Assembly: GCA_049970095.1 (NCBI GenBank) | Contig: JBMFNP010000001.1 | Coordinates: 18,912-82,911 of the forward strand | Origin: Thermoplasmata archaeon | Lineage (GTDB): Archaea > Thermoplasmatota > Thermoplasmata > Lutacidiplasmatales > SKW197 | Length of the DNA: 64,000 nucleotides | Direction of reading: 5' to 3' | Shown here: piece after piece, positions 11,905 through 54,621 of the stretch | How the letters are laid out: each line of letters opens with the position of its first letter | How positions within the stretch are numbered: position 1 is the stretch's first letter | Notes under the pieces: model-generated | Told to the model about the DNA's origin: nothing | Seen by the model: only the letters and a program-made list of their open reading frames with translations | Database searches by the model: none | Made by a program: the position numbers and the translations under genes

Positions 11905-12044
11905 CGTTTCATCACCACCAAAGGAATAGCGCAGGGAGTATATTAACCTTTCATGGAAACATTCATGGAAAAAGGGAACTAGGGAGTTGCCGCAGGGTGC
12001 AACCCTGACAATATCTTTTTATCTGATAACTCATTTCAATACTC

Positions 12045-13952: not shown

Positions 13953-14004
13953 ATGAAAAGGGCAACACAAAAACTTTAAGAACAATTGTGTATTAAACTT
14001 ACAT

Positions 14005-17735: not shown

Positions 17736-20700
17736 TTAGCGGACGATGGCTCCGCAGTATGGGCACACCACAAATTCGTTGCTGATTTCTTTTCCGCACT
17801 TCGGACATACCTTGCTGAGCGGTTTTTCAGGTGTTTCCATAACTGGTTCCGGTTTCCTTATCACTTTTTTCGGAGGAACAGGTGCCTGTGGTGGCGGTGG
17901 GACTTGTGCCTGCACTTCTGCCGGTGGTGAGGACTTCAAAACTACGGGTTTTGAGCGCGGTGGTGCATATGCTGGAGGTGGCTGGTATTGAGGTTGTGGG
18001 GGTGCATATTGAGGCAGGGGTTGCTGTACTGGTGGTCTATATTCTTCTGCCGGAGGTGCAGTTCTTACTGCTGGCGGTTGTTGTAGCATTGAAGTACCAC
18101 ATCTATAGCACACAGTTGCATATGCTTCATTGATGGCACCGCAACTCGGACATTTAACAGTTGCCCGTTTTGCCTTTTCTTCCTTGTTAAGCCACTGATT
18201 GTATGTCATGTATGTGGGCTGTGTTCTCCACCATCTCCAGAATGCGGCTTCAGAGAAACTTGCACCCATTTCCCTCTTTGCCTGTGCCCTGTACTTCTCA
18301 ACATATGCTTCGTATTGCTGGCGCATTGTTTTCTCATGACTCGTGGCTTCAACTTTCTTGCCAGTGAATGTTGTGCCACATTCTGGGCAAGTCTTGGCAT
18401 TTGCAGGAATCCACGCACCACACTCACTGCATCTTACTGTGCTAGTTTCGAATTCAGCACCGCATTTTGGACATTTTGTAGCATTTTCAGGAATTGGTGC
18501 ACCACATTCTCCACATTCGCCAAGTTTTCCAATACCCATTCTGGAAAGTAATAAAAGTACTACAATTACAACTACAACTATGATTATTATTATCACAATT
18601 ATAAGAATGAGCCACGATGGAATTCCTCCTTGCTGTGGTGCATTGACTTCCACCACATTGGGCACCTCGTAGGAGAGCGGGTTTACATCTGCACCCGCTA
18701 CCTCAAAATCAAGTATGTATTTGCCTGGCTTGTCAAACTTTGCATAAATTACAAACTGTCCATCCGAAGCCACAGTAGCAGGATATCTGGTTACGACATT
18801 TCCAGTGGATGCATCTTTGAGATAGAGAGTAACTCCCATCTGTATATCTAGATTTTCGGGTACCTTTACCTTCCCAACAAAGGTGCAATCTTCTGTTGTG
18901 GAGTATCCATCCGCTTTTATGAATGGCCGTGCATCCCAGTCAAGAGTCAACCTCTCTACGAAAATTGTATTGGAAGCATTCATGCCAGTATTGTTTACCT
19001 TTGCATAAATCGTGTGGCTGGCGTTGAGAAGTTTTGTGGTTACAACCCATGTGAATTCACATACAACCATACCTTTCCCTGGCACCTTCTGAATATTGGT
19101 CTTTCCAAGGAAGTTTGATTTTGTGAGACCATCAAGATAAAAGTCCACAGAAACACTTGAGGAATCAAGATCTCCGTCATTTGTGAGATTTACCCTGCAG
19201 ACAACTGTGGAACCGTACTGGGTTGAAGTGATCGGGGTGTTTTCTGTATCATAGAACCACACCTTACTCGCCATTGAGAGTTTAGCAGCGTACTTTACAT
19301 ATATATTGGTTTTAACTGCCTGTGTAGAGACGCCCTCTGTACATGAAGTTACCTGCACAGACACATTCTGGGAGCCACCTATGCCTGAGGGGATATCCCA
19401 ATTAATGCTTGCCACCGCTGTTGATTTTGCGTTTATTTTTGGAATTGTGGTTGTACCAATCTCACCAGCATCTGTGCTGAACACCACAACTACATTGGAT
19501 GCAAATCCGTTCCCATCGTTATAAATTTCCACACTGATTGTTGTGGAACCATTTTCAGTGGGTTCTGGAGATACAGTTAGGGCGCCAGCATTTATCTGCA
19601 AATCTGGGTATGTGATGATCACGGATTTTGTAGCAGTATTATCCCCCTTGTCTGAGATGGATTCTGTGGGTTCAGATGAAATTATGGATGCGGTGATTGT
19701 GTAATATGTTCCGGATGTGGGTGTCCATGAAACTTTTGCATCTCTCCTCTCTCCAATAGGGATGCTTGAAATGGTGTCTGTACCCAGATCACCGGATGCT
19801 GTACTGAATTTTACTATCACATTTCTTGCATCTCCGTCACCGCTGTTTTTAATTGTTGTGCGCACTTCTGCAGTTTGATTCACATTTACACTTTCGCTTG
19901 GTGCACCATTAACTAGCACAAATAGGAACTCAATTGAAAGAGAGGGTCTTCCTGCGATATTTAGGTTTGTGGAGTATGTGTTATCATTCTCACTCATTTC
20001 TGAAATGCTGTTATCTGGGTCCACTGTCGCATTGATGCTGAATATTCCCGATGCGTCAAAGGTGTATTGATAAACAAGATTCTGGCTTGAACCAGGTGTT
20101 ATGTCTGCAGGTAGAGAATCTCCGATGACAACACCATTTACTTCAAATCTAACAATTACACCCTTTGCCAGGGAAAGCCCATTGTTTTCTACACTCGCAG
20201 TCAGGTTGATAACATCTCCTTTTAGTGGCTGGGCAGGTGTTGTAAACAAATTGGTTATCTTCAAATTCGGAAGGTCAATTGAAATTCCTACGGGCGATGT
20301 TTCAAAGATGTTGTCTTCCTCAACCAAGTCAGGATATGGTGGGAGTGTAATGATTCCACTTCCTCTCTTAGTGTTCTGATAGGTGCAGTTTGCAATATAT
20401 GAGCCTATGAATATACTGTTTGGCAGTGTAGTCACATTAATAACATCAGAAGCCACAGGGTATCTGATTATTCCCGAAGCATCTGAGCGATTTGTTATTC
20501 CGTTTGCTGTAAGATACATTTTTATTAATGGATGTGCGTTGAGATCATTTGCAAGGGCTGCAAGGTTGTACTGGATCATAGAGGAAGAAGGAGTGTATTC
20601 CAGTGATGTGAGCTGGGCATTTTGAATTGGCATCCTATTCTGGTCATACACGGGAATCTTTGCCCAGCGGTATATAATTACCTGACTTGTGTTAAATGTA

Positions 20701-21944
20701 AAAATTGCAGGTGCATATTTCTGGCCATGGCCTGCAGCATCCAGCGGGGGTGTTTCTGCTTCATCAAATCCTACATTGAGAAGTTCCACTCTTGCGGAAT
20801 CGTAGAGCACCAGTTTATTTGATGTACCAAAAGAGAATACATTTGAATCCCAATCTATTGATATATTTGAGTTTATTACGGTCATCTGAGTGCTTCCATA
20901 CAATGTGAAGTTAAATTCATAGGCAGGCCTTACAATAACATCAAATCTTGTTATGGTTATATTTCCAGTAGTTCCATTATGGTTAAACCTGAACCTCAGT
21001 TTTTCCAGTCCCGCCAGTGTGGTTACAGAAAGCGGGATAACATCGCTCACCTGTTCACTAGCATTTGGTGTGAGCGGTAAATCCTCCCATGAAGTTCCTC
21101 CATTGTATGAAACCTCAAAACTTTTTGAACCATTATATTCTGATGTTGTGGTATAATCAATCTGGACAGATACTTTGCTGAGTTTCTCATATGCGATTTC
21201 AGTTGTATCCAACTGAGAGATGTTCAACCACTCCCCAGGATTGAGCTCTACATAACCTGGAAAGTCCTTTGGTGTAATCTGATAATCTACAATGTTTACA
21301 TTCTCATAGTATTTTTCAATTTTAGAATCTGCAATATATATCTTGGAGTTTATCGCAGTAATTACTGGTGCATCGTCATTGTCGTCTGTTTTTGCAGCAT
21401 CATTTGCCCATACAGAAGGCATTTCAGAAAGTCCTGTGATTGTGGATTCGTTCATGTACACTTCTGCTCCGTTAAGGTAGAGATATCCTGGAAACGAAAG
21501 TCTGGAATTTTTCATCACAATCTTTCCACCATTGCAGGTTAGATTGAATTTAAGATAGGGATTCACCATCATTACCGAGACGGTGATTGCACTGTCTTCC
21601 AGATATAGAATTCCACCCGAATTCACTACGAGGGTGTACTTTTTCTTTGGAGAATATGGATACACCCCACCGTCCTGAAGAAACTGAATTTCAATTCCTT
21701 TAACTGTCAGATTTCCACCAGAGTTTATTGTAATGTTTCCATCCATGCCTAAAATACCACTGGGTGCAGTTGAACGATCCAGTATTACAGTTGTATCCAC
21801 GACTAAATCATTTACAGAACTTTTGTTGCTTCCAGATTCGCTTGCCAGTATGCTCATGGAAAGCGGTAATGTGAGCAGCAATCCTATACACATTGCCCAA
21901 ACCATTTGCTCAGCTTGCTTTTTTGAATGCATCATACTTATCAT
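17736..21944 (-). CDS. giant type-I membrane surface protein: signal peptide, CARDB/beta-helix-like ectodomain, single TM, cytoplasmic tail with four double-zinc-ribbon motifs and Pro/Gln-rich linker
   Basis: 1402 aa. It has an N-terminal signal (…CIGLLLTLPLSMSILASESG) and CARDB-like repeats (e.g. LKGDVINLTASVENNGLSLAKGVIVRFEVNG). A TM helix IPSWLILIIVIIIIIVVVVIVVLLLL is followed by CGECGAPIPENATKCPKCG…CSECGAWIPANAKTCPECG…CPSCGAINEAYATVCYRCG…CPKCGKEISNEFVVCPYCG and a PPVQQPLPQYAPPQPQYQPPPAYAPP stretch. Confidence 0.8.
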   Translation of the reverse strand: MISMMHSKKQAEQMVWAMCIGLLLTLPLSMSILASESGSNKSSVNDLVVDTTVILDRSTAPSGILGMDGNITINSGGNLTVKGIEIQFLQDGGVYPYSPKKKYTLVVNSGGILYLEDSAITVSVMMVNPYLKFNLTCNGGKIVMKNSRLSFPGYLYLNGAEVYMNESTITGLSEMPSVWANDAAKTDDNDDAPVITAINSKIYIADSKIEKYYENVNIVDYQITPKDFPGYVELNPGEWLNISQLDTTEIAYEKLSKVSVQIDYTTTSEYNGSKSFEVSYNGGTSWEDLPLTPNASEQVSDVIPLSVTTLAGLEKLRFRFNHNGTTGNITITRFDVIVRPAYEFNFTLYGSTQMTVINSNISIDWDSNVFSFGTSNKLVLYDSARVELLNVGFDEAETPPLDAAGHGQKYAPAIFTFNTSQVIIYRWAKIPVYDQNRMPIQNAQLTSLEYTPSSSMIQYNLAALANDLNAHPLIKMYLTANGITNRSDASGIIRYPVASDVINVTTLPNSIFIGSYIANCTYQNTKRGSGIITLPPYPDLVEEDNIFETSPVGISIDLPNLKITNLFTTPAQPLKGDVINLTASVENNGLSLAKGVIVRFEVNGVVIGDSLPADITPGSSQNLVYQYTFDASGIFSINATVDPDNSISEMSENDNTYSTNLNIAGRPSLSIEFLFVLVNGAPSESVNVNQTAEVRTTIKNSGDGDARNVIVKFSTASGDLGTDTISSIPIGERRDAKVSWTPTSGTYYTITASIISSEPTESISDKGDNTATKSVIITYPDLQINAGALTVSPEPTENGSTTISVEIYNDGNGFASNVVVVFSTDAGEIGTTTIPKINAKSTAVASINWDIPSGIGGSQNVSVQVTSCTEGVSTQAVKTNIYVKYAAKLSMASKVWFYDTENTPITSTQYGSTVVCRVNLTNDGDLDSSSVSVDFYLDGLTKSNFLGKTNIQKVPGKGMVVCEFTWVVTTKLLNASHTIYAKVNNTGMNASNTIFVERLTLDWDARPFIKADGYSTTEDCTFVGKVKVPENLDIQMGVTLYLKDASTGNVVTRYPATVASDGQFVIYAKFDKPGKYILDFEVAGADVNPLSYEVPNVVEVNAPQQGGIPSWLILIIVIIIIIVVVVIVVLLLLSRMGIGKLGECGECGAPIPENATKCPKCGAEFETSTVRCSECGAWIPANAKTCPECGTTFTGKKVEATSHEKTMRQQYEAYVEKYRAQAKREMGASFSEAAFWRWWRTQPTYMTYNQWLNKEEKAKRATVKCPSCGAINEAYATVCYRCGTSMLQQPPAVRTAPPAEEYRPPVQQPLPQYAPPQPQYQPPPAYAPPRSKPVVLKSSPPAEVQAQVPPPPQAPVPPKKVIRKPEPVMETPEKPLSKVCPKCGKEISNEFVVCPYCGAIVR

Positions 21945-22070
21945 CCCTCTGTCTTTGTTTTTTCTCCTATATGTGTATTCTATATATATACCTTTGGCAT
22001 CACATTGCTACTTGTAGGCTTAGGGGGTATGCCAAAATGCATATATCTTTAGAGAACTTAATCCATCTGA

Positions 22071-30990: not shown

Positions 30991-33900
30991 TTATTTTTTC
31001 TTCTCTTTTTTCTCTTCCTTTGTTTCTTTTTCTGGCTTTTTCTTCTTAATCTTTTCCTCTTCTTCCTCTTCACCGCCTTTCCGTCTCTTGCTGACTATGT
31101 AAATTACCAGTAGGGCGATTACTACAGCTGCAATACCTCCGCCGTACATTGCGTAGGTTTTCCATGCTGCCTCGTTTACTGTAATCTCTTTCTTCATCCC
31201 ATTGTTATCTGTATAGGTGTAGTACTCCTGAGCAGAATAAACACTTACATTGAGGCTGAAAGTTCCCGCAGTGTCAGGAGTCCATCTGAATTCCACAGTC
31301 ATTGTTTCATTATATTTAAGGGCGGTACCGTTGGGGTATGTGAATGTTGTGATGTTGCCCACTTCCCTTGCATCACCAGCACTTGAAATCAGCGTGAATG
31401 AAAGGTAATTGATGACTGCACTGGAGTTTTCACCACCAATGTTTTTGATTTCCACTTTGATTGTGCACTGAGTGCCCACTTCAAATTTATCTGGCAAAGT
31501 TACATTCGTGATTTCTAAGTCAGGCCTCGCGCTGGTGTTCAGCCGCACATTCAGAACCACAGTAGTATTTTTTGAATTACCAGCAATATCCCAAACCGTT
31601 AGGGTGATGTTCCAGTCGCCAGGTTCCAAGCCATTTTCAATGAAGTATGTGGTATTGTTTGATTCATTCTGGAGGAAAATTTGACCCTTCTTTTCAACCG
31701 TCCAGTTGTATTTTACAATAGTTCCTCCATGTGGATCATAGGACTCATTTGCTTTCAATGTGAGATTTGTCTTTTCAATCACACTCGTGGTTTCTGTGTT
31801 TTCTGCGTCATACACCTTGATTACTGGTTCAGGTGCCTCAGTGTCATTTACAATCACTGTAATCGTAGTGTTTGCCCAGTTACCTGCAATATCTGTCACA
31901 TTCAGTGTCACATTGTAAATCCAGCATCCCTTTACTGTCACTGTCCTACCAGATATATTGAAGGTGGTAATATTTACATAGTTTGCTCCTCCAACAAATG
32001 TATGGGAAATGTTGTAAAGGCGATTATCCATGGTCTCAGTAACCGTGGTGTTATCACCAAAGTCCCATGCCCAACTCCTTATTGTTCCGTTTCTGTCGCT
32101 TCCTGTTATGCTGTCTGAGGAGTAAGAGCCGTTGAACACTACCGGTGTGGTTACATTCGTAAATACATAGGTTGTGTTGTTGCCATTTGCATTAATCACT
32201 GCCAAAGGCACAACGCCATCCACATGTAGCGTCATGTTAGTTGTGTTTGTCTGCCCACCACTTCCGAGCACCGTGAGTTTTACTGTAATTCTCTCCCCTG
32301 CTTTTGTGTAGGTGTGGTTGATGGTAATATTCTCTGTTGAGGTTACTGTGCCATCACCGAAATCCCATGTGTATTTTGTAATATTGCCAACAGGAATTAT
32401 GGAATTCTGGGCACTGAAAGTCACATTTTCATTTGCCTTCACGATTACAGTATAGTTTTCGTATGTAGCATTTATGATATTGTAATCTCCCCATTCTTCC
32501 GCAGTTACATTGATCACTGGCTTTACCTCGGAGAACTTCTCAAACTCCATTCTTGCAGAAGCATAAGTGTAGCCACTCCCTGTTTTTGGATCTATTTCAA
32601 ATTTTTGCCAGTTGTTTATAGGCCAGAGGTCAACAAAACCTCTGTCAAATGTGTGATCCGTAAGTACATATCCAGGTGGCAAAGTAATCTGGTATTTGTA
32701 GTCGGAAAATACACTGTCGTAGAGAAAACCAAAGTTGCATTCGTAAGCATCACTTGTGTTTATTGTAGCATCCGAGTGGAATGTATAGGTGTAATTTATG
32801 TATATGGGTGCATCGGTGGTGACATCAATAGGATTGCTTGTGTTTGTTATACCTGTATCCTTCACACTCACACTGAAGCCAGATATATTTGTGAAACTAG
32901 TAGCATTTATTTCAAATCCGAACTGGTTAGGGACATATAGAGGTCCTGCCTTTGCTAGATACTCTTTGAATGCATCCATTTCTGTCTGGCTCACCTTGAA
33001 ATCTCTGTTTCCAAATGTGAAATCAATCTGGAGTCTAAGAATGCCTGTATCTGCCAGTTCCAGCCACGGAAACGAATAATGTGGGTAAATTTTTGCCTTT
33101 GTGGTTGCAGTAAAATTGTTCATATCAGTGAGGTTGAGTTCAGTCAATATTTCTCCTTTGGTTACCTGCTTTACTTTTGCATCCTTGATCTGGAGGATTC
33201 CGCTACTTACACTCACACTCTTGTTAATGTATGTGGTGTAACCCTCAGAAGCAACAATCAGCACAAAGTTACCTGGATATGCACCGATTTCAAAGTATGG
33301 TGTGTTTTCAAATTCTCTTGTGAAAGCTTTAAGTGTGTTCTGGTCAATGAGGATTACCGTAGTATGTTTTGCATCTGTGATTATGTTGCCTTCCATATCC
33401 CTAAGCACACCTTTAATGAAGGTTTTATACAGTGTAATGTTTATATCAATTCCACCGTTCTCTGGCAGTGTCACTGTCACATTGTAGGTTGGAGAGTACT
33501 GCGGATATTCTACGATGAGGTTATATGTTCCTGGATAGAATGAGATGTTAAATCCCTGCACTTTCGGGTCGGTAACATTCACATCATTGGGCAGCGGGAT
33601 CCCATAACTTCTCGTTTCCTCACTGTACTTGTGTGCAATGTCCACAATTTTAACTGTAGCGTTGGTAGTGAAATCCCCGCCAGTTGCAAGCCGAATTGTG
33701 CCATTAACATACGCGTTCACATCCTTTTTCTCAGTTGTGAGTTCCTTCTCTACATTTTGTGTGAATACACCAAAGGGCTCAGTTTCTGTGTAAAGGAAAA
33801 CTTCATTAATTTTCTTTTGCGAATCCATCACCAGTTTATAGTAACCTGGGGATGCTGAGAAGATAAAGAAACCACCAGTCCTCGTGGTCGTGGTGCTTGT

Positions 33901-34089
33901 CACCTCTCCTTTTGCAAAAGAGTAGAGCTTGACTGTAAGTCCTTCTGGTGCAAAATCCCCATCAGTTGTGTACACGGTGCCAGATATTGTCACCGTAGGG
34001 GATGTTCCATTCGCCTTCAGCGTAGAGCACACTAGCAGTCCAAGCACCAATATTGTACCTATTATTTTCAGACACTGTTGTTGTTTCAT
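30991..34089 (-). CDS. large surface protein with signal peptide, PKD domains and C-terminal TM anchor plus Glu/Lys-rich tail
   Basis: 1032 aa. N-terminal signal; PKD signatures WDFGDGTVTS… and WAWDFGDNTTVT…; many N-glycosylation sequons. C-terminus YAMYGGGIAAVVIALLVIYIVSKRRKGGEEEEEEKIKKKK…. Confidence 0.8.
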   Translation of the reverse strand: MKQQQCLKIIGTILVLGLLVCSTLKANGTSPTVTISGTVYTTDGDFAPEGLTVKLYSFAKGEVTSTTTTRTGGFFIFSASPGYYKLVMDSQKKINEVFLYTETEPFGVFTQNVEKELTTEKKDVNAYVNGTIRLATGGDFTTNATVKIVDIAHKYSEETRSYGIPLPNDVNVTDPKVQGFNISFYPGTYNLIVEYPQYSPTYNVTVTLPENGGIDINITLYKTFIKGVLRDMEGNIITDAKHTTVILIDQNTLKAFTREFENTPYFEIGAYPGNFVLIVASEGYTTYINKSVSVSSGILQIKDAKVKQVTKGEILTELNLTDMNNFTATTKAKIYPHYSFPWLELADTGILRLQIDFTFGNRDFKVSQTEMDAFKEYLAKAGPLYVPNQFGFEINATSFTNISGFSVSVKDTGITNTSNPIDVTTDAPIYINYTYTFHSDATINTSDAYECNFGFLYDSVFSDYKYQITLPPGYVLTDHTFDRGFVDLWPINNWQKFEIDPKTGSGYTYASARMEFEKFSEVKPVINVTAEEWGDYNIINATYENYTVIVKANENVTFSAQNSIIPVGNITKYTWDFGDGTVTSTENITINHTYTKAGERITVKLTVLGSGGQTNTTNMTLHVDGVVPLAVINANGNNTTYVFTNVTTPVVFNGSYSSDSITGSDRNGTIRSWAWDFGDNTTVTETMDNRLYNISHTFVGGANYVNITTFNISGRTVTVKGCWIYNVTLNVTDIAGNWANTTITVIVNDTEAPEPVIKVYDAENTETTSVIEKTNLTLKANESYDPHGGTIVKYNWTVEKKGQIFLQNESNNTTYFIENGLEPGDWNITLTVWDIAGNSKNTTVVLNVRLNTSARPDLEITNVTLPDKFEVGTQCTIKVEIKNIGGENSSAVINYLSFTLISSAGDAREVGNITTFTYPNGTALKYNETMTVEFRWTPDTAGTFSLNVSVYSAQEYYTYTDNNGMKKEITVNEAAWKTYAMYGGGIAAVVIALLVIYIVSKRRKGGEEEEEEKIKKKKPEKETKEEKKEKKK

Positions 34090-34281
34090 TTTCCATCCTC
34101 CAATTTGGCTATGCCTGATTTTTTCAGTTTAACACCTACTCATTAATATAATTTTGCCTTCACCGGGTTTCATTGAGTGTTTCTCAAAACTGCCCTCTCA
34201 CCCAGGTACCATCTTTTTCTGCCGTCTTAGAAGTTTGAGGTCGTGGAAAAATCTATATCTCTTTGTAAACTTCGCCATTCA

Positions 34282-36135
34282 ATGCAAAAATCACATGAGC
34301 GCCGCACACAAATCTTCTGGTGCAGCAGGTGCAATGTTCCCATTCTCAGCGAAAAGTGTGGAATTTGTGGCAGCAATGGAAACAAGATTATGCTCCACCA
34401 TGGGAGAGAAATCAGGCCCGGGTTTGAGTACACGCTGAATAAAATCAACCAGATACTTGAAAAAAAGTATGGAGTGAAGGAGGCTTTGAATGGAAAACTT
34501 GTGCTTCTTCACAAAGTAGCAGGTATTGATAGGACAGAAGAAATAATTGTTGATGGAAAGATTTTTGGTACATTTTCCTACATACCTGAAGAGAGGGAAT
34601 TTCAGATTTTTCTGAGAAGTTACGGCGCTGCCTATCTGCGGGGGAAGGGAGCACATAAAAATATAGTAACTGTAAATGAGAAAGCACTGGAGAGACATCT
34701 GAAAAACACATGGATTTTTGCAGAGGAACTACTGGATATTGCAGAGATTTCTCCACATCAGGACATTATTCTCTCCATAGGTAAATACACAGGTGTAGGA
34801 ATCCCTAAATTCCATAGTAGGGAAAAAATTCCAAAAAAGTGCATAAAGGTAAGGGATATTGGGGTCTGTGAATTCCAGGAGAACAACCCTGATTTTCACA
34901 CGATAGTAAAGGCAAATGCAGATTATATTGATATTCTTGAAAAAACAGCAATATCGGAAATAAAAAGGACGCTGATGCAACATAAAAATATGAAAATTGC
35001 TGTATCTTTCAGCGGAGGTAAAGATAGTGCAGTAGCATTTCATCTTCTCAGCAAAGTGACAAGCCAGTTTGATGTTATTTTCGTGGACACAGGTCTTGAA
35101 TTTCCTGAGACGGTAGAATATGTGAAAAAAATGGCTAAGGGAAAGCCTCTCTTCATTCTGAAACCCGAACACTCATTCTGGGATCTTGTGGATTCCATGG
35201 GACCACCAGCAAAGGATTACAGATGGTGCTGCAAGGTATGCAAGTTAGCACCAGTTGCCAGCCATGTAGGTAAATATGGAGAAATTCTAACTGTTGAGGG
35301 TAGAAGAAGGGCTGAGTCCTTTGCAAGAGAGAAAATAAATTTGATTGAAAAAAATCCGTTTGTGCCAGGGCAAATACTCGTGAACCCCATAAGAAACTGG
35401 TGTGCATTTGAGATCTGGCTATACATTCTAAAAGAACATATTCCAGTGAATCCGCTTTACTTCCATGATTTTGAAAGAATTGGGTGCTATCTCTGCCCCT
35501 CTGCACATGCCTGTGAATTTGATGAGGTTGCCTCTCTCCATCCAGAAATGTATGAGCGCTGGCAGAATTATCTAAAATTTTGGGCTGAAAAAAATGGAAT
35601 GGACGAAGATTACTGGAGAAAAGGTTTATGGCGATGGAAAACTCCACCGAGGAAAATCAGGAGAGAGAAAAGCTGGGAGGAGAAAAGAAATATTCACATC
35701 AAGGAAAGCATCACATGCAATGGAGAATATTTGATTGATGGGAACTTCAATACTGGGTTGAGCCAGATAGAAATCGGAAATGCACTGGGAATCCTGGGAG
35801 AAATGAGATATCTTGAGAGCACTGGCACAATTATGATAAAGCTCAGAAAATCTAGAATTCTATTTTTTGCAAACTCTGATTTCTCTGTAGTCTCAACTAA
35901 CCGTGAGGAGGGAAGAAAACTTCTTGTAAAGATTATCCAGCAATTGCTGAGGGGGATGTTCTGCACATCCTGCATGATCTGCAAAAGGGCATGCCCAGTA
36001 GGGTGCATAGATATAAGGGATGGAAAACCAGAGTACAACCTTCAGAAATGCAAAAAATGTGGGCATTGTATTGAGGCGTGTGTTGTGGCGAGATACTGGG
36101 ACAAGCGGATTGCACTTGTTTTTTCCCACACATAA
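34282..36135 (+). CDS. PAPS-reductase-family PP-loop ATPase with N-terminal Zn-ribbon + PUA-like domain and C-terminal ferredoxin domain (paralogue 2)
   Basis: WCSRCNVPILSEKCGICGS Zn ribbon, AVSFSGGKDS PP-loop, RWCCKVCK…GCYLCP, and C-terminal CTSCMICKRACP…CKKCGHCIEAC. About 50% identical to 12045..13952 in the catalytic core. Start chosen at the Met aligned with paralogue 1 (track ORF begins at 34243). Confidence 0.8.
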   Translation: MQKSHERRTQIFWCSRCNVPILSEKCGICGSNGNKIMLHHGREIRPGFEYTLNKINQILEKKYGVKEALNGKLVLLHKVAGIDRTEEIIVDGKIFGTFSYIPEEREFQIFLRSYGAAYLRGKGAHKNIVTVNEKALERHLKNTWIFAEELLDIAEISPHQDIILSIGKYTGVGIPKFHSREKIPKKCIKVRDIGVCEFQENNPDFHTIVKANADYIDILEKTAISEIKRTLMQHKNMKIAVSFSGGKDSAVAFHLLSKVTSQFDVIFVDTGLEFPETVEYVKKMAKGKPLFILKPEHSFWDLVDSMGPPAKDYRWCCKVCKLAPVASHVGKYGEILTVEGRRRAESFAREKINLIEKNPFVPGQILVNPIRNWCAFEIWLYILKEHIPVNPLYFHDFERIGCYLCPSAHACEFDEVASLHPEMYERWQNYLKFWAEKNGMDEDYWRKGLWRWKTPPRKIRREKSWEEKRNIHIKESITCNGEYLIDGNFNTGLSQIEIGNALGILGEMRYLESTGTIMIKLRKSRILFFANSDFSVVSTNREEGRKLLVKIIQQLLRGMFCTSCMICKRACPVGCIDIRDGKPEYNLQKCKKCGHCIEACVVARYWDKRIALVFSHT

Positions 36136-46304: not shown

Positions 46305-48449
46305 TCAAAATGTTTTTCTATCTGTGGCTATCGGTGAGAAGATGATGCCGGGTGGAGAAGAATGAGAATTGTAATGCTGGAGGAATTCATCCCACTGGGT
46401 TTGGTTTGTGAACACCCCTGATGAAGAATATTCCCCAAGCCAGCTTGCATCCCCATCAGGGAAGAATATACTTATGCCGTGGCAGAAGCTCACGGTCGGT
46501 GTTGCCCTGTAAACCATCACTGTAGAAGAAACTTGGCTCATCACATTTGCTGCTGCACTCTTCAAACTGCTGGAATTTGCATACTTCTGGATGTTCTCTG
46601 CAAACTGGTAGAGGTCAACAGTGTTGTAGCCAGTTGAGTCAAGGATACTCCCGCATGCCTTTCTTGCTTTGGAAATATTTTCATAATCTTTCTGTAGTTC
46701 GCTTGTTAGTGCACTTGCGAAGCTGTTAACGGCACTCACAAGCCCTGGCACCGCTGCAGCATTGTATGCGGCAATTGCCTGCGTTGTGTAACAGGCATCA
46801 TCTACAGGTGTAGCTACATTTATGATAGTAGTTGCCAGGGCACTTCCTGAGATGCTTGGGTTGGATACAATTGCTCCTACAATTCTATTCTGGGGGAACG
46901 TGGATGTCCAGCCAATAGTTTCACTTGCAACTATATAATCCACATATGGATACACCTGCGCGAGCACTTCAATTGCACCCATCAAACAGTCATCAAAATA
47001 GAGCACATCCACATTATGCCCGATGAGTTGCTTCAATGCCTCAACCCCATTAGCAATTTCTGTAAGGTCAAGGTTGTCCCCTCCGTTCGTATCATCCCAG
47101 CAACAACCAAGCCATGACCCACCATGGTCCTCCGGGTTCACCAGATAGTGGTCTGCCTGGAATCTCTGGGCACCCCAGATAAGGAAGTAAATCCAGGTAT
47201 ATCTATCTCCCATGTTAACTTCGCCCAAACTCTGTACTGCATTCTGTGGTGTGGGAGAAAGCCCTTTGGTTACAAAGTACCTGTATGCCCCACTGTTCGC
47301 ATGGTCTATCTGGACTGCGATGCTCACATCCCTTGTTGAGCCTATACTTGCAATATCATTGAAATCCTCAACCATGTAATCATCAAGGTTGTTGTCACCA
47401 TCGTAGTACATCAGCACAGTCCATTTCGCTTTCACCACTGTAAAACTCATGGTGACGCCGTTGTTACTCTCCCCAGTGCCGATATAAGTGCCCGTAGCTT
47501 TGTTCGCTTCACTCACAGCATTCGTTGTATCCACTACTACACGCACTGTATGGGTTCCTGGTGTAGATATAAAGAGAGAGGAAGAAGAGAAGGAGAAAGA
47601 GGCACCCACTGAAAGGCTAGAGGTTGTTTTTGTTCCATAGAGGGTCCCATCTACATAGATTTTGGTGTAAAATGTGGTTGATGCACTGTTATCTCCAGCG
47701 TTCTTTATTTTCGTGTAAACCTTGAACGGCTGTCCAGATGTTATGGTTGTAGTTGTGCTCCCATATGTGTCCACAATCCAGGTACTTTCCACCACAAGGT
47801 CTGGTGCTTTGAACCATACCAGGGTGGATTTTATGTTGTCGTTTTCATTGCTTTCTGGTACACTGTTTGTGGAATCGGCAATTACCATCACATTATGATA
47901 TCCAGGTCCAAGTCTGTTTGTGGTCTTATACACCGTTGTGGAAGTTTCTGGTTCAAGAACATCCACCCAGACAGTTCCAAGAGAGATATTCGTATTCCCG
48001 TATTTGCTCTTGAATTCCACTGAGAAACCTGATGCGGCAACTTCTCCGTAGTTAGTAAGGGTGGCAGTAATTGTAATTGTCTGGTAGGCAGTAGGTGTTG
48101 AGGGCGAGACGGAAATACTTTTTACTACAATATTTGCCGCTCCCCCTGCGGCGTTGATTTCTGGGGGTGTATATTCAGATACCACCTCAGGTAGATTCTC
48201 TACACTCATTTCAAAAGCAGATTCGCCAATCAATTCTGGCGATCCGATGGTCCCTTCCGAGAATTCTTTCAATAGAACTGGATTTTGTTTCACTTCCTTT
48301 TTACTGACATCTGTCCTTATTCCCTTCTCCGAGTTATTCATTCCTGACACTGAAACCGTGAAAACACCAGCTACTAGTACTACCAAGAGCATAGCACATA
48401 TCATTTTTTTAGATTTTTTAGAGTTGAACATTTTATCACCTCCTTTCAC
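46305..48449 (-). CDS. secreted CARDB-domain protein with C-terminal clostripain-like (peptidase C11) cysteine-protease domain
   Basis: Signal peptide, then CARDB-like repeats (…YQTITITATLTNYGEVAASGFSVEFKS…). C11 signatures WTVLMYYDGDNNLDDYM, EDHGGSWLG (catalytic His) and LYFDDCLMGAIEVLAQ (catalytic Cys). Confidence 0.75.
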   Translation of the reverse strand: MKGGDKMFNSKKSKKMICAMLLVVLVAGVFTVSVSGMNNSEKGIRTDVSKKEVKQNPVLLKEFSEGTIGSPELIGESAFEMSVENLPEVVSEYTPPEINAAGGAANIVVKSISVSPSTPTAYQTITITATLTNYGEVAASGFSVEFKSKYGNTNISLGTVWVDVLEPETSTTVYKTTNRLGPGYHNVMVIADSTNSVPESNENDNIKSTLVWFKAPDLVVESTWIVDTYGSTTTTITSGQPFKVYTKIKNAGDNSASTTFYTKIYVDGTLYGTKTTSSLSVGASFSFSSSSLFISTPGTHTVRVVVDTTNAVSEANKATGTYIGTGESNNGVTMSFTVVKAKWTVLMYYDGDNNLDDYMVEDFNDIASIGSTRDVSIAVQIDHANSGAYRYFVTKGLSPTPQNAVQSLGEVNMGDRYTWIYFLIWGAQRFQADHYLVNPEDHGGSWLGCCWDDTNGGDNLDLTEIANGVEALKQLIGHNVDVLYFDDCLMGAIEVLAQVYPYVDYIVASETIGWTSTFPQNRIVGAIVSNPSISGSALATTIINVATPVDDACYTTQAIAAYNAAAVPGLVSAVNSFASALTSELQKDYENISKARKACGSILDSTGYNTVDLYQFAENIQKYANSSSLKSAAANVMSQVSSTVMVYRATPTVSFCHGISIFFPDGDASWLGEYSSSGVFTNQTQWDEFLQHYNSHSSPPGIIFSPIATDRKTF

Positions 48450-48572: not shown

Positions 48573-48606
48573 ATGTTTATATATACGCTTGCAGATATAG
48601 ATTAGT

Positions 48607-48617: not shown

Positions 48618-49121
48618 ATGCACAGAAGTTTCCATAAACCGAAAAGTTTTTTATTCTCAAAAAAAGGTGCGGCGGATTTTTATGAAGAGATACCTACGGT
48701 TATCATCGCCATCACCTCAATCACGCTTTTCTTTCTCGCTGCAACAGTGGCATATGCCAATTACCAGGCAACTTACACGCACATAGACTACCGTGCAAAA
48801 TGCAATAAATTCCTGCGGGACATAAGAGGCTGGGAAAACCTAACATATGGGAACATGGAAGGGCTCTTTGATGCCAGAAAAGTGGCTACATACACACTGG
48901 ATAATCTCACCCGTGCGTTCCAGCCGGATTTTGATTTTGAGGTAAATATCACAGACACAAGCCCCTATTACTGGAAGTATAATCGTATTGTTAAAACAGG
49001 GACTATTCCTGACACCAGTTCACTCACCTACGGTGTGTATGTAATTTCATGTGGAATTGCAATATTTGTGAATGAAGAGGAAATACATGAAGGTAAATTA
49101 ACAGTAACCATCTGGAGGTGA
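48618..49121 (+). CDS. pilin-like / class-III-signal-peptide protein 1 of operon
   Basis: N-terminus …SKKG|AADFYEEIPTVIIAITSITLFFLAATVAY (basic residues, Gly, hydrophobic stretch). 167 aa, strong SD. Confidence 0.55.
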   Translation: MHRSFHKPKSFLFSKKGAADFYEEIPTVIIAITSITLFFLAATVAYANYQATYTHIDYRAKCNKFLRDIRGWENLTYGNMEGLFDARKVATYTLDNLTRAFQPDFDFEVNITDTSPYYWKYNRIVKTGTIPDTSSLTYGVYVISCGIAIFVNEEEIHEGKLTVTIWR

Positions 49122-49122
49122 G
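49115..49122 (+). promoter_or_regulatory. Shine-Dalgarno GGAGGTGA 3 nt upstream of TTG start 49126
   Basis: ctggaggtgagaaTTGaacagaaag. Confidence 0.6.
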
Positions 49123-49125
49123 AAT

Positions 49126-49644
49126 TTGAACAGAAAGAAGAGGGGACAGAGTTCACTTTTTGACATGGTTTTTTTCATTCCACTCTTAATTCTTGCGGGC
49201 TTAATACTCAATTTTTCCACAGTTAAAATTTATGACAACACCGTAAAAGACGACGAAAAAATCGTTGTGGTGTCCGAAACCCTGGAGAACATTCTCAGGG
49301 TAACAATAGACAAAGCCACATACACTGCGAGCAGTGCAACCATTCTTCTTGAGGACCAGAGTGTTCTGGAACTGATTTTTGAGGATTTGTATTTGAGAGA
49401 TAAAGGTGTGGCGGATGTGAACAATATTAAGCAGGGCATTGAGGCGAAAATAAATGCCGCAATAAGAGGTGTGGTATCTCCGGAATACCACTATAATCTT
49501 TCTGCCACTTACAAAAATGTAAATATCTGGATGTCAGATTATGGTCCCAGTCCACAGATCAAATACACCTCAACGGAATATTTCAAGATGCCATATGAAC
49601 CCACAAATGTGGTGAAGGTAACCCTTGCAATTTGGCTCCGTTAA
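49126..49644 (+). CDS. pilin-like / class-III-signal-peptide protein 2 of operon (TTG start)
   Basis: N-terminus MNRKKRG|QSSLFDMVFFIPLLILAGLILNF fits the archaeal prepilin-peptidase substrate pattern (K/R-G, then a small residue, then a hydrophobic stretch). Confidence 0.55.
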   Translation: MNRKKRGQSSLFDMVFFIPLLILAGLILNFSTVKIYDNTVKDDEKIVVVSETLENILRVTIDKATYTASSATILLEDQSVLELIFEDLYLRDKGVADVNNIKQGIEAKINAAIRGVVSPEYHYNLSATYKNVNIWMSDYGPSPQIKYTSTEYFKMPYEPTNVVKVTLAIWLR

Positions 49645-49652
49645 GGAGGTGA
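49645..49652 (+). promoter_or_regulatory. Shine-Dalgarno GGAGGTGA 5 nt upstream of ATG 49658
   Basis: ttaaggaggtgagaaaaATGaataaagg. Confidence 0.65.
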
Positions 49653-49657
49653 GAAAA

Positions 49658-52600
49658 ATGAATAAAGGAAAATTGAGAAAAATAAGAATGAATGAGAGGG
49701 GCAGAGTTCCATTTGCTCTGGTTGCACTCGTAATCCTCTCGCTTGCAACAGTAAGCACATTGTATATCGCAGAAATTGATAAGGAACGCTCAGAAAAGGT
49801 AATAGAACACTATCAGGCAGATACGAATAATATTGCGAGGGCATGTGGTGAGGAACTGGAAACAGTGGCATACTATATTCTGATGCAAGTGATTGCAGAT
49901 ATGAATAATCAGCACAATCCACCACTTGACCAGATAAACAAAAGGTTACAGGATAATTTCGCTGCGTATGTGAACACATATTATAAGCCGAAGCGGATGG
50001 ATACATACTGGATAACTGTGAAAGAACACCATGTGTATTTTATCATGGATATTTTCAATGTGAATGATTCTATAGATATCTCAAACCAGAGCAAGCCCGA
50101 GTTTTTGCTGTTTGCATCACCCAGCACAAATGAAATAGACATGACAACAAACACAATGTTAAGCCAGACAAAGAAGGTTGCATATCCGAGGGTAGCGGGA
50201 AATGTAACACTGGAATTAAAAGATGTGCGTGCAAATTACATAGTGACCAAAACAATGGAGTTTGACAAGAATCTGTATTCTGCATTGCCGATGATGCGCA
50301 GTGCCTATGACTTTCTCTCAAGAACCTCTTTTGGTGATTTTGGGGAGTTAGGAAGATTGACAAAATTCATACTTACAACGATTGCCCAGTATAGAGTACT
50401 GCTTGGTTATGCTGGTGGCGGCTATGGCATCTACACCTATCCAAAGGAACAGATACTCACGCAGGATGATGTAAAAATTGCAGTGAATGTGGCAATGCTT
50501 CTGCTCTCTGCAAGATATTTTAGAGATTATGATAAAGATGCTGCTACCCAGCTCGGTGTAAACGCATTGTTTGAGAACTGGGTGAAAAATGGAACGGTGG
50601 ATGCTGCGGACATCTGGGCGTTGTATAAGAATATCATGGACACAAAAATAGACACAGGCAAGATTTTAGCCCAGAGCATCTATTCCTTTGCAGATAGATT
50701 TGCGTATGAACTCCTGACAATATTCTGGGATCCGGACACAGATTATTTTGCAGACCCAATCTTGAAGGAGCCATTCAGGGACTGGAATGAGGCAAAGGGT
50801 AAGGGAGAGACATGGGCAAAGGCAATGCTTAAAATCTGGCTTGGAAAATTCCGTTCATGGCTGGGAATTGCAGAAAGCATTGGGGATTACGAGAGTTCAG
50901 CATATATTAACGAAATGTCTGGTTTCTATGTGGCATACTGTCCTGTGCACGATGAGATTGTTGCAGGAACCTATACAGTGTTCCCTGGTGGTACATGGTA
51001 TGTGCATGCGTACGGAGTGCCAGACACAAGAGATCTTATTCTTGGAGAATCTGGAAATCCAAATCTTGATGCTCAACCCTATAAAGTTGAGACCTGGGAT
51101 GATTTCAGTGGCATTGGAAAGAGGTTATATAATTACTATGTGGTGAAGGAATCATTGATAAAGAAACATGCACACAGTAGCACACCCTACTATGACACGC
51201 TCTATGATATTCTTGAGGCTCTGAATAGAACCATGAAAAAACTTTCACCGAGTGTAAATGACAAACCGAACAAAGGATTTATGGATTATATGGCATACGA
51301 TATCTCAAAACGGCACAATCTTGAAGATACTGGTCTACAGGTAGATCCGAGTGATAAAACCACAATTCTTCTCAACCACTCAGACTATCTGATAAACACA
51401 GGTGCAATAAAGCAGGGAATCAATGATATGGCATCCTATGCAAGTGCGTTCAATGTGAGAGATAACTGGTGGAGATATGGCGCATACCATAGAGAGCAAA
51501 CAAATCCCAAAACTGGCTATCTATATGCAATCACGCAGGAAACTGTGGACCTCTGGTACGAAATGGTAGTAAACCTCTTCATGAGTGCAATAAAGGACTT
51601 TGACCCGTTTCCCTCAAGGGGTTTCCCGCCCTCAGTACAGCGGAGCGACTGGTATAATCCAAATGGTGCCTTTAAATTCAAAAATGACTTACTGAAAGAC
51701 GCTTTCATGCGTGTGTGCATAAAGTATGCAGATCCAAGGCGTGCGTCCTGGCATGATGAGGCATGGGATGGAACCCCACCCTGCTGTTCAATTCCAAAGA
51801 TGATTATTCTTGCAGAGGTGAATGCAGAATGGACAGATCTCAATATCTGGAACCATATAATGGCTGACATACGAGAAGCAGTTGAGGATACTGTTGGAAG
51901 AAACGGGCTCTTGATGGACATTACCAGGGATATGAAAGAAAATCTTGACGAAGTTACAGACATGCATGCCTATCAAGAAAATTATTACCGATTCATAAGG
52001 GAGTACATTGGCACCAAATTCATTGGAACTTCCGGATCAAATACCTGCCTGGTTGTAGCCCTTACGAAGCAGGGTGGCTGGGTTGAGAACATAATGCAGA
52101 CCACACTTAATCACATAAGAGACAATGCGGATTTGAGCAACATTGTATTATTTGAGCAAACAAACTATAGAATGGTATATGATTTCTGGGAGAACAATCT
52201 CACCACAGCATCCCAGAATGAAAGTATCCTCCATGAGGAATTGAGGGTGAAGCAGTATCCCACAGTGCTCTCACCCGGCTCTGGAATTAATGTCCAGATC
52301 ACCATACCTACAAAGGGAGTGCATTATGTAGATGCACAGGATGTGGAGCATAACATGGGTGATGCGCCCTTCACCACCCAGTGGGATGTAACAATAACAG
52401 GCAGTGTGCGAATTACAGTGAATGCTCTCAGATACTCACTGCTAAAAGGTCCAACGCATATCCAGACAATTTACAACAATACCGTTAAAATAGACATGAA
52501 TTTTCCAGTGGTGGTTTATTCTGGATGGAATTTAGAATCAGGATGGCGCAGATATGATATTGACTATCCAATGACACGCGGATACTTTGGAATTCCACCA

Positions 52601-53872
52601 AAAGACGACTCCTTTGACCCCTGGTTTATAAGCAAGCCCTTTGTTGAGTTGATAGAAGGAATGAAGGATGCAGCGGATTGGGTAATGGACAGAGACATGC
52701 GCATGAACCTCCTGCTGATGAATTATCTGGACAAAGGTGTGGAGCAGGAAGTGCATCTTTCAAAGATAATATCAGATGTGCTGAAGACAAACTGCATTCT
52801 ATTGCGTGATGCAGCCAAATCCAACTATCTCTCCGAGTTAAGCCAGAGATTCAATGCTGTGTTCTCTGCAGGAAGGGTGAGCACATACAACATTAAATTT
52901 TATGGATTTGATGCCACCTTCAAAAGTGGCTCAAAAGTTCTGGATTACAAGAGTAAATACTTTACCACAGAGATTGACTATGCAAATCTGAAAAACCAAC
53001 TCAAGTATGAGGCAAATGATTTTGATTTCAACGACGCAAGTGAACCACTGAGTGGAACATTCGGGAAGTTCAGTTTGACTGCACACAACACATACTTCGG
53101 AGAGACATTCACCACAAACATTGAGGAACCGAGCAGGACGCCCATAAGATGCGAATGGGCAGCAACAGTTAACGGAATATATGTGCCTTACCTGCATAAG
53201 ACCATCACTCTGAATATTGGAGCGATTTTGATGGGAAGTTCCACAATGCCTTCAAGTGTGTCCAGCGCCTTCAGCAATAACGCGGTGTATTTGAAGGCAA
53301 ATATGGAAGACCTGAGTGTATTCCTCAAATACTCACTGGGAGATGTGTATTCCCACTGTGTGAATGACCTTACAAGCAGTCAGGGCTTTGGCTTCTTCTT
53401 TGAATATACAGATGGTGGAAAAACCTACAGACAGGAATATGTGATTGCACAGTTTCCAGGTGCGAGCTGGAGCGAGGGACATATAAGAACATATCTGATA
53501 TCAGTTATTAACCACATACGCCAGATTGTATATAACATAGGAAATCCAGAAATTCCCACAGCACTTTATTCCTCCTATCCCACAGATATAGGAAATGCGA
53601 TGAAAGTGCAGAATCGCTGGAAGAATTATGATTATCTGGGAGATGCTGTAACATCCGTTACAATCAATGCTCATGCATCACTGCTTGGAAAGGTGGGTGC
53701 AGGAATAGACGCAGGTATCGTGCGAATTGAGTTTGAGGTTGTGGGCAAAGACAACTGGATTGTAGAAGGGAGAACAATGAATGGCGGCAGTTCTCCGCCG
53801 CCTCCACCACCACCTCCACCACCACCGCCACCCGGTGGAAGGCTAGATGGAATTGATGTATCTAACTGGTAG
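49658..53872 (+). CDS. giant (~1400 aa) protein with pilin-like N-terminus, large domain of unknown fold, 13-residue poly-Pro linker and the first strand of a GH25 muramidase domain; terminated by TAG inside the GH25 GIDVSxWQG motif
   Basis: SD-supported start MNKGKLRKIRMNERG|RVPFALVALVILSLATVSTLYIAEI. It ends …NGGSSPPPPPPPPPPPPPGGRLDGIDVSNW-TAG. The GH25 homology continues in the same frame immediately after the TAG. Confidence 0.8.
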   Translation: MNKGKLRKIRMNERGRVPFALVALVILSLATVSTLYIAEIDKERSEKVIEHYQADTNNIARACGEELETVAYYILMQVIADMNNQHNPPLDQINKRLQDNFAAYVNTYYKPKRMDTYWITVKEHHVYFIMDIFNVNDSIDISNQSKPEFLLFASPSTNEIDMTTNTMLSQTKKVAYPRVAGNVTLELKDVRANYIVTKTMEFDKNLYSALPMMRSAYDFLSRTSFGDFGELGRLTKFILTTIAQYRVLLGYAGGGYGIYTYPKEQILTQDDVKIAVNVAMLLLSARYFRDYDKDAATQLGVNALFENWVKNGTVDAADIWALYKNIMDTKIDTGKILAQSIYSFADRFAYELLTIFWDPDTDYFADPILKEPFRDWNEAKGKGETWAKAMLKIWLGKFRSWLGIAESIGDYESSAYINEMSGFYVAYCPVHDEIVAGTYTVFPGGTWYVHAYGVPDTRDLILGESGNPNLDAQPYKVETWDDFSGIGKRLYNYYVVKESLIKKHAHSSTPYYDTLYDILEALNRTMKKLSPSVNDKPNKGFMDYMAYDISKRHNLEDTGLQVDPSDKTTILLNHSDYLINTGAIKQGINDMASYASAFNVRDNWWRYGAYHREQTNPKTGYLYAITQETVDLWYEMVVNLFMSAIKDFDPFPSRGFPPSVQRSDWYNPNGAFKFKNDLLKDAFMRVCIKYADPRRASWHDEAWDGTPPCCSIPKMIILAEVNAEWTDLNIWNHIMADIREAVEDTVGRNGLLMDITRDMKENLDEVTDMHAYQENYYRFIREYIGTKFIGTSGSNTCLVVALTKQGGWVENIMQTTLNHIRDNADLSNIVLFEQTNYRMVYDFWENNLTTASQNESILHEELRVKQYPTVLSPGSGINVQITIPTKGVHYVDAQDVEHNMGDAPFTTQWDVTITGSVRITVNALRYSLLKGPTHIQTIYNNTVKIDMNFPVVVYSGWNLESGWRRYDIDYPMTRGYFGIPPKDDSFDPWFISKPFVELIEGMKDAADWVMDRDMRMNLLLMNYLDKGVEQEVHLSKIISDVLKTNCILLRDAAKSNYLSELSQRFNAVFSAGRVSTYNIKFYGFDATFKSGSKVLDYKSKYFTTEIDYANLKNQLKYEANDFDFNDASEPLSGTFGKFSLTAHNTYFGETFTTNIEEPSRTPIRCEWAATVNGIYVPYLHKTITLNIGAILMGSSTMPSSVSSAFSNNAVYLKANMEDLSVFLKYSLGDVYSHCVNDLTSSQGFGFFFEYTDGGKTYRQEYVIAQFPGASWSEGHIRTYLISVINHIRQIVYNIGNPEIPTALYSSYPTDIGNAMKVQNRWKNYDYLGDAVTSVTINAHASLLGKVGAGIDAGIVRIEFEVVGKDNWIVEGRTMNGGSSPPPPPPPPPPPPPGGRLDGIDVSNW

Positions 53873-53974
53873 GGCACAATCAACTGGGTTTCTGTCAGGG
53901 CTGCAGGATATTACTTTGCGTTTGCAAAAGCCACGGAAGGTGTAAGTTATGTAGACCCAACTTTCAGTACAAAT

Positions 53975-54457
53975 ATGAGAAATGCCAAGGCAGCAGGAAT
54001 TTACATAGGAGCATATCATTATGCCCACCCGGACAGGAATTCAGCAATTGCAGAAGCAGACCACTTCGTGAGTGTGATAATGCCATATATCTCTACTGGC
54101 TATATGGTACCTGCGCTTGACCTGGAGGAGGGTTATTCTATCGGGAAGCCTGCGCTTTCCCAGTGGGTAAATACTTTTATGAACAGAGTGAAGGCAAGGA
54201 CAGGAGTGACACCTGTAATTTATACAAGCGCAAATTATGCAAGGAACTATCTTGATTCCTCAGTCACTGTATGGCCACTGTGGATTGCGCACTGGACATA
54301 CAATCCTGGGAGTTCCCCAAGTACGGGTGTCTGGAGTACCTGGTATTTCTGGCAGTATAGTGATAAAGGCCATGTGCCAGGCATCTCAGGCAATGTTGAT
54401 CTGGATGTTTTTAATGGAGATCTATCTGCGCTGGAAGCGAGTTTTGTAATCCATTGA
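53975..54457 (+). CDS. GH25-family lysozyme/muramidase domain, as called from an internal Met; the homology actually starts at 53846 in frame with the upstream giant ORF across TAG 53870-53872
   Basis: GRLDGIDVSNW*GTINWVSVRAAGYYFAFAKATEGVSYVDPTFSTNMRNAKAAGIYIGAYHYAHP…ALDLEEG…WIAHW…WYFWQYSDKGHVPGISGNVDLDVFNG aligns residue-for-residue with the Streptomyces GH25 (Cellosyl) pattern GIDVSHWQGSINW…AYIKATEG…GAYHFA…LDIE…FWQYS…GDVDRNKFNG. The TAG replaces the conserved Gln. Confidence 0.8.
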   Translation: MRNAKAAGIYIGAYHYAHPDRNSAIAEADHFVSVIMPYISTGYMVPALDLEEGYSIGKPALSQWVNTFMNRVKARTGVTPVIYTSANYARNYLDSSVTVWPLWIAHWTYNPGSSPSTGVWSTWYFWQYSDKGHVPGISGNVDLDVFNGDLSALEASFVIH

Positions 54458-54621
54458 TTTTCTCTAATTTTTTTGTTGCTTCTAACAAAGATTTTAAAAA
54501 TGTGCTGGTACCTGTATCAAGCACTGCGTTTGAGGGCAAGCATCTACCTAATGAGAGAATTGAGAAGGTATATCAAAAACTTTATTACACCCTTCTGATA
54601 TACCGCTCGCTGGTGAAATCT

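Follow-up and report, generated by a model that had tools for sequence, protein, structure and literature searches.

An antibacterial muramidase of glycoside hydrolase family 25 (GH25) that was acquired horizontally has been described in the archaeon Aciduliprofundum boonei, where it is encoded by a gene of 1725 bp, or about 575 amino acids (aa) (Metcalf et al. 2014, PMC4241558). A broader survey detected homologues of peptidoglycan hydrolases, in diverse architectures, in about 5% of archaeal genomes, with Thermoplasmatota prominent among them (Strock et al. 2025, PMC12352652); a text search of that paper found no mention of pseudogenes or stop codons. Archaeal enzymes of this kind are emerging as a theme of antagonism between archaea and bacteria (Metcalf 2014; Strock 2025). 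Here we describe a 64,000-nucleotide (nt) stretch of DNA (the window) from an uncultured hot-spring Thermoplasmata archaeon (GenBank assembly GCA_049970095.1, contig JBMFNP010000001.1), in which a bacterial-type GH25 domain at the C-terminal end of a giant protein is interrupted by a single in-frame TAG. We estimate a probability of roughly 0.7 that this TAG, which all sampled strains carry, arose from CAG by a recent nonsense mutation and disables a dispensable antibacterial domain.

Like the A. boonei enzyme (B5ID12), the window domain is of bacterial type, belongs to a member of the class Thermoplasmata, has archaeal genes as neighbours, lies within a larger multidomain secreted protein and is expected to target peptidoglycan. 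Unlike the 1725-bp A. boonei gene, its carrier is a protein of about 1400 aa from an unrelated, uncharacterised family, the domain is attached by a poly-proline linker and a stop codon lies inside it. In addition, A. boonei is a member of the DHVE2 group, whereas the relatives of the window organism belong to order UBA184. A preliminary description of this DNA had suggested that the window holds the same locus as Aciduliprofundum or a related one, and this suggestion fails on locus, carrier family and order. The closest solved structure is that of a bacterial enzyme, Cellosyl (N-acetylmuramidase M1) from Streptomyces coelicolor (1jfx, E 5.6e-41), which serves as the reference structure for GH25. 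The match covers the whole domain, with the motifs GIDVS(H/N)WQG, LD(I/L)E, FWQYS and G(D/N)VD all aligned. Cellosyl is a free, secreted enzyme of 217 aa, whereas the window GH25 is a C-terminal module with TAG as its Gln codon.

The TAG lies at 53870-53872 on the + strand, in the same frame as an open reading frame (ORF) that begins at ATG 49658. It is preceded by 1404 codons, or by 1415 if the alternative start TTG 49625 is used. Beyond the TAG, the frame stays open for another 194 codons to a TGA at 54455-54457, and a product that reads through the stop would be 1599 aa in full length. Along the frame, 13 Pro codons (53795-53833, +) form the poly-proline linker and are followed by the first strand of GH25, GGRLDGIDVSNW (53834-53869, +), and then by the TAG. 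The translation on either side of the stop reads SSPPPPPPPPPPPPPGGRLDGIDVSNW before it and GTINWVSVRAAGYYFAFAKATEG after it. The ORF and its translation thus bear out the in-frame TAG that had been noted at the end of the 1404-aa ORF, and the interruption is a clear single event rather than a chance pattern.

When Gln is placed at the stop, the last 207 residues of the protein match the Pfam profile PF01183 (Glyco_hydro_25) over its entire length, with residues 7-184 of the query aligned to profile positions 1-180 of 180 (E 6.9e-53). The score of 180 bits compares with a cut-off of 27 bits, and it applies solely to a translation continued past the TAG. This profile search, a hidden Markov model (HMM) search, supports the GH25 assignment originally made by eye. 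In GH25 enzymes, the Asp of the first strand and the acidic residues of the DxE motif are catalytic. The Asp of GIDVS (GAT, 53855-53857) lies upstream of the stop and aligns to the Asp in GIDVSHWQG of Cellosyl. The remainder of the domain (53873-54457, +; 194 codons and the TGA) contains LDLE, whose Asp (54119-54121) and Glu (54125-54127) both align to Cellosyl, and FWQYS at 54347-54361. The GH25 domain is therefore not encoded in a single uninterrupted frame, and the alignment to Cellosyl confirms that the first-strand Asp and the DxE motif fall on opposite sides of the TAG. The motifs first noted in the rest of the domain were LDxE, FWQYS and GDVD; the first two are present, and the last instead reads GNVD in the window and in every orthologue. 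The column occupied by the TAG is Gln in 50 of 52 aligned GH25 homologues, and Lys occupies it in 4kru, a GH25 enzyme of solved structure.

We searched species-representative genomes and metagenome contigs for orthologues and found the same fusion of giant protein, poly-proline linker and GH25 in three other Thermoplasmata species. In L002 (Thermoplasmata metagenome-assembled genome [MAG] SKW197), the fusion is an uninterrupted ORF of 1606 aa preceded by the same two small genes as in the window. In the MAG QQ_201709_bins_14, GH25 is split over two contig ends (L003 and L005), and neither piece contains a stop. In L026 (Ga0207433_10010513), the contig edge cuts the 5' end of the gene, and the frame is open through the linker and GH25 to the terminal stop. 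The linker comprises 17 Pro in L026 and 20 in L002, and these length differences from the window keep the frame. The codon orthologous to the TAG is CAG in L002 and L003, and L026 encodes Gln. The orthologue alignment therefore supports CAG as the ancestral codon, as had been expected, and the window differs from the orthologous codon by one C-to-T transition (CAG to TAG). A TAG at this site is limited to the window species. The intact fusions of L002 and L026 fit the picture drawn by the survey of Strock et al. QQ_201709_bins_14 is assigned to GTDB order UBA184, family DTFW01 (PMC11094006, supplementary table). Because of this placement, the lineage is neither DHVE2 nor Methanomassiliicoccales. 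Literature under the placeholder name UBA184 deals mostly with unrelated bacterial lineages.

By exact-sequence look-up, we identified three additional assemblies of the window species, L023 (ENA ERZ3623746), L024 (GCA_049971275.1) and L025 (GCA_049699375.1), which are 99.4-99.6% identical to the window. All three carry the TAG within AACTGGTAGGGCACA. They differ from the window and from one another by single-nucleotide polymorphisms (SNPs) and small indels, and the TAG is common to both SNP haplotype groups, one formed by the window and L024 and the other by L023 and L025. Three explanations for the stop had been offered, the first of which was a nonsense mutation or a strain polymorphism. 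These data favor the nonsense mutation and speak against a polymorphism private to one strain, as the TAG is present in all four assemblies of the species.

The relative age of the stop was assessed by comparing GH25 within and between species. Between the window and its orthologues, the ratio of non-synonymous to synonymous substitution rates (dN/dS) in the GH25 region is about 0.02, with dS saturated. The window lineage has five private amino-acid changes besides the stop, compared with eight, five and three in the other three lineages, and a relative-rate test did not detect faster amino-acid change in the window GH25. The relative-rate result gives no precise date for the mutation and is no proof of continued selection. 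Because dN/dS is so low and the private changes lie within the range of the other lineages, the domain was under strong constraint for nearly all of the history of the lineage, and the stop is recent relative to the species split. We saw no frameshifts or further stops downstream of the TAG and no other secondary decay, such as raised dN. None would be expected at a within-species divergence of just 0.2-0.5%, and for this reason the absence of decay does not argue against a recent lesion.

In this organism, TAG functions as a normal stop codon. Among the 41 other window genes that could be delimited with confidence, 5 are terminated by TAG, with short and unrelated tails behind them, and it also terminates the intact fusion gene of L026 and the GH25-less gene of L001, a contig discussed below. 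No other gene of the window is interrupted by a TAG (1 of approximately 42 genes interrupted in total).

Collectively, these results suggest the following sequence of events. The operon at 48618-54457 encodes a giant protein, predicted to be membrane-anchored or secreted, together with two small proteins that are prepilin-like. In related species, the giant protein leads through the poly-proline linker into a bacterial-type GH25 muramidase, which would be displayed outside the cell and presumably cut the peptidoglycan of neighbouring bacteria. In the window species, one C-to-T transition would have created the TAG from the codon for the conserved Gln in the GIDVSxWQG strand. Translation would then end at residue 1404, leaving a product that retains the linker and only the first 12 residues of GH25. 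The remaining 194 codons would be transcribed but not usefully translated, and muramidase activity would be lost. The downstream codons would still look intact because the mutation is young relative to the species split. Extracellular display, the antibacterial role and the lack of translation past the TAG are the parts of this account that we infer. The locus adds a carrier architecture to the known archaeal peptidoglycan hydrolases, with GH25 placed on a poly-proline linker at the end of a giant protein beside two prepilin-like genes.

Several points weigh against a simple knockout. Between the TAG and the end of the frame, a stretch of 585 nt, the species has three SNPs (53968, 53995 and 54370), each of them a synonymous third-position change, whereas SNPs in neighbouring genes are split roughly evenly between synonymous and non-synonymous. 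By our rough calculation, in which about one quarter of random changes are synonymous, three out of three would arise under neutrality with a chance of about 0.015-0.03. These three SNPs hint at continued constraint after the TAG. Similarly, an intact frame beyond the TAG is expected for a young lesion and yet is compatible with continued use. A suppressor tRNA or pyl genes are possible elsewhere in the genome, beyond the window and the related loci. Lastly, with the TAG known from assemblies, a CAG minority allele of substantial size is possible within the populations.

The alternative that best survives these comparisons is leaky or programmed read-through, in which some ribosomes decode UAG with a near-cognate tRNA and the downstream codons stay under selection. 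Decoding by tRNA-Gln would restore the wild-type residue and yield a small or regulated amount of the 1599-aa, muramidase-bearing protein. We consider both parts of this proposal unlikely. In its favor are the synonymous SNPs, the occurrence of the TAG in both haplotype groups and the fully intact downstream domain. The linker is also polymorphic in length within the species, and the 9-nt indel responsible, which gives L024 and L025 16 Pro instead of the 13 of the window, preserves the frame. Transcription in archaea terminates at oligo-T tracts, and there are no runs of five or more T between 50107 and 54407; with no such terminator between the TAG and the end of GH25, the mRNA should span the domain. 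In yeast, UAG is decoded as Gln, Tyr or Lys (PMC4150775), and by analogy a rare read-through product could carry the native Gln. The Lys of 4kru raises the possibility that several inserted residues might be tolerated at this position.

Against read-through, the stop is confined to one species, and its three sister species have CAG or Gln. The RNA following the stop does not appear to be structured, as the predicted fold of 53864-53990 (127 nt) is no better than that of shuffled sequences (z = -0.48). The base directly 3' of the stop is G, and TAG-G is not a read-through context in bacteria or eukaryotes, although its relevance in archaea may differ. Three SNPs are too few to carry the argument, and a 9-nt indel in a CCN repeat is also a product of replication slippage. 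Read-through or suppression, the second of the explanations offered initially, is therefore left without structural or contextual support and is weakly suggested by the synonymous SNPs. A more specific form of the idea, which we regard as doubtful, is that the TAG throttles the muramidase instead of knocking it out, so that the cell makes mostly the plain giant protein and a small fraction with an active muramidase tip. It is similarly doubtful that near-cognate tRNA-Gln restores the Gln under such a throttle while selection keeps the 194 downstream codons. If true, this would be a natural, functional amber read-through in an archaeon that does not use pyrrolysine (Pyl), and a demonstration of read-through would raise the interest of the case considerably.

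We next consider whether the TAG could stem from an error of assembly or consensus calling, or whether it is polymorphic, with functional CAG alleles common in the population. All of the sequences are metagenome assemblies, and the coverage of L023 is only about 2.6x according to its record name. However, an assembly or sequencing error, the third of the initial explanations, is excluded because the same TAG occurs in four assemblies with different SNP patterns. In addition, three MAGs have NCBI annotations that independently break the gene in two at the TAG, and scans of genomes and metagenomes yielded no CAG-bearing contig of the window species. Taken as a whole, this alternative is quite improbable.

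Pyrrolysine or another reassignment of TAG is very unlikely here and is the least probable of the alternatives: although Methanomassiliicoccales, which use Pyl, belong to the class Thermoplasmata, Lys is tolerated at this position in 4kru and the locus shares with the Pyl TAGs of Methanomassiliicoccales and Methanosarcinales an in-frame TAG in an otherwise intact coding sequence of this class, the related genomes fall in order UBA184, the TAG is not conserved in orthologues, it serves as a normal stop in the small sample of window genes and in L026, only one window gene is interrupted, the 64-kb window contains no methanogenesis or methyltransferase genes or other sign of Pyl metabolism, and scans for tRNA genes in the window and eight related loci, which represent a small part of each genome, detected none.

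The reading we prefer, a recent nonsense mutation in a dispensable domain, is consistent with the turnover of the module in related genomes. Over 2153 nt of the giant gene, the contig L001 (JGI 3300045900) and L026 share 98.65% identity, and the two diverge at the exact start of the linker. The L001 protein ends three codons past this point and is followed by an unrelated gene, without linker or GH25. Because L001 lacks the module despite being nearly identical to L026, the GH25 domain appears to be dispensable in this clade. L001 is a contig of 3.5 kb and may be a chimeric assembly. If it is not chimeric, the GH25 module is present or absent between nearly identical strains, and there were two independent losses among close relatives, by deletion in L001 and by the nonsense allele in the window species. 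The module is thus intact in three species, apparently deleted in L001 and cut by a stop in the window species. Such rapid turnover argues for an accessory role of the antibacterial domain, with selection on it fluctuating. The window most likely captures the loss of the domain at an early stage, in a clade that repeatedly gains and loses this module.

The part of the gene downstream of the TAG has entered the databases as a protein of its own. In the three MAGs in which NCBI splits the gene, 53879-54457 is listed as a separate 192-aa "GH25 family protein" (P0007) with ATC 53879 as its start. We considered separate expression of this part and rejected it. There is no start codon near the TAG, the first ATG being at 53975, 35 codons downstream, and no TATA-like box was found within 53700-54000. 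The fragment also has neither a signal peptide of its own nor the first-strand Asp. The free-standing entry probably results from an error of annotation, and any survey of archaeal lysozymes that took it for a functional enzyme would inflate its total.

To place the window domain among other GH25 domains, we relied on a neighbor-joining distance tree (without support values), in which the window clade is sister to two GH25 copies of the DHVE2 MAG L004. These copies are approximately 61-65% identical to the window domain, compared with approximately 45-58% for the best bacterial and metagenomic matches. The neighbours of the window gene include archaeal Pus10 and pyruvoyl arginine decarboxylase. 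Together with the DHVE2 domains as nearest outside relatives, they agree with the earlier view of a bacterial-type domain among archaeal genes. The window domain probably belongs to a Thermoplasmata GH25 clade that includes the published A. boonei case, a comparison made via L004 only. The GH25 of L004 resides in a different multidomain protein. At 9701-11260 of JALWEL010000014.1, this MAG encodes tandem GH25 domains. The second of these lacks the GxDVSHW strand, has ALALVSG where the first has ALDLEDG, and looks catalytically dead. Judged by eye, the L004 protein has a putative protease-like N-terminal region and a putative fibronectin-III-like tail.

The interrupted gene is the last of three tightly spaced genes on the + strand (48618-54457), which encode proteins of 167 aa and 172 aa and the long frame. 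A TATA-like box, TTTATATATA (48576-48585, +), is a candidate archaeal promoter for the operon, and GGAGGT directly precedes the first ATG. A T7 tract directly after the GH25 stop (54468-54474, +) is a candidate transcription terminator. Gene 1 (48618-49121, +; 167 aa), named hypothetical protein by NCBI, is 84% identical to L002 5238-5744. Its class-III-like (prepilin-like) N-terminus has SKKG followed by AADFYEEIPTVIIAITSITLFFLAATV, and the comparison with L002 is variable before the Gly and invariant after it. Gene 2 (49126-49644, +; 172 aa) is 86% identical to L002 5752-6270 and has a class-III-like N-terminus with KKRG followed by QSSLFDMVFFIPLLILAGLIL; as in gene 1, conservation begins directly past the Gly. 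After KKG in gene 1 and KRG in gene 2, the sequences continue with AADF and QSSLF, respectively, and then with hydrophobic helices. This pattern resembles that of archaeal class III (prepilin-like) signal peptides, and a short charged N-terminus that ends in (K/R)G and precedes a hydrophobic helix is visible in all three proteins of the operon. Gene 3 (49658-53872, +; 1404 aa, with the 1606-aa orthologue in L002) begins with NERG followed by RVPFALVALVILSLATVSTLYIA, which is conserved in its family. The Arg after the Gly in the giant protein is atypical for a class III signal peptide. The giant protein had been called pilin-like; the N-terminal motifs fit this term, whereas HMM searches lend it no support, as scans of the giant protein and both small proteins against Pfam and NCBIfam returned no match.

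An exhaustive HMMER search with the giant protein retrieved 128 cluster representatives at E<=1e-3, mostly of 1250-2100 aa. The homologues examined share an N-terminal (K/R)(G/A)-R-(V/I)-P-F-A followed by a hydrophobic helix. A distant homologue, P0005, matches DUF7286 (PF23957) at its N-terminus only, over the N-terminal 40 positions of the profile. DUF7286 is a long archaeal family with no assigned function that shares the N-terminal (R/K)(G/A)-R-(V/I)-P-F-A and hydrophobic helix with the window carrier; the giant protein itself scores no DUF7286 match, and the link runs through P0005 only. Other family members (P0170, P0190 and P0210) contain a C39-like peptidase, a C-terminal calcineurin-like phosphoesterase (metallophosphoesterase) or PKD/Big_5 domains. 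The family may serve as a scaffold, or modular carrier, for accessory modules. We also considered a polymorphic-toxin-like arrangement, in which a conserved carrier bears a swappable C-terminal effector. It is kept as a resemblance only, drawn from the varied modules of the family and the difference in GH25 between L026 and the possibly chimeric L001.

An AlphaFold2 model of residues 205-1404, built from an alignment of six sequences, was unusable (mean predicted local distance difference test score 34.7, predicted template modelling score 0.28). Exact-sequence look-ups of the 1404-aa product and of a 1394-aa variant returned no record, which for the 1404-aa product probably reflects a differing start call. 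Within the giant protein, the segment at 50558-51158 (residues ~300-500) is 21-46% identical to the L002 orthologue, compared with approximately 70-94% elsewhere, and may be a hypervariable, surface-exposed region. Four same-species SNPs are clustered at 51172-51179, just 3' of this segment.

The genes 3' of the operon differ by species. A ZnuA-type ABC transporter follows in the window and DNA polymerase DP2 in L026. Near 54610, L024 and L025 have a 21-nt insertion, TGGTGAAATCTATGAACAAGA, which is a tandem duplication located either at the beginning of the ZnuA-like gene or shortly before it. In L002, the gene directly 3' of the intact fusion (11178-14009) encodes a protein with GH18, a pseudomurein-binding repeat and a transglutaminase-like core, which may be a second cell-wall-directed enzyme beside the muramidase.

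Elsewhere in the window, three genes on the - strand encode predicted surface or secreted proteins with CARDB domains. These are a 1423-aa protein that also has several zinc ribbons (17736-22007), a 1045-aa protein with PKD domains (30991-34128) and a clostripain-type C11 peptidase (46305-48449). Two paralogous genes on the + strand (12030-13952 and 34231-36135) encode proteins of approximately 635 aa, each with a PAPS-reductase domain, and the product of the first additionally contains a PUA domain and a C-terminal 4Fe-4S dicluster domain.

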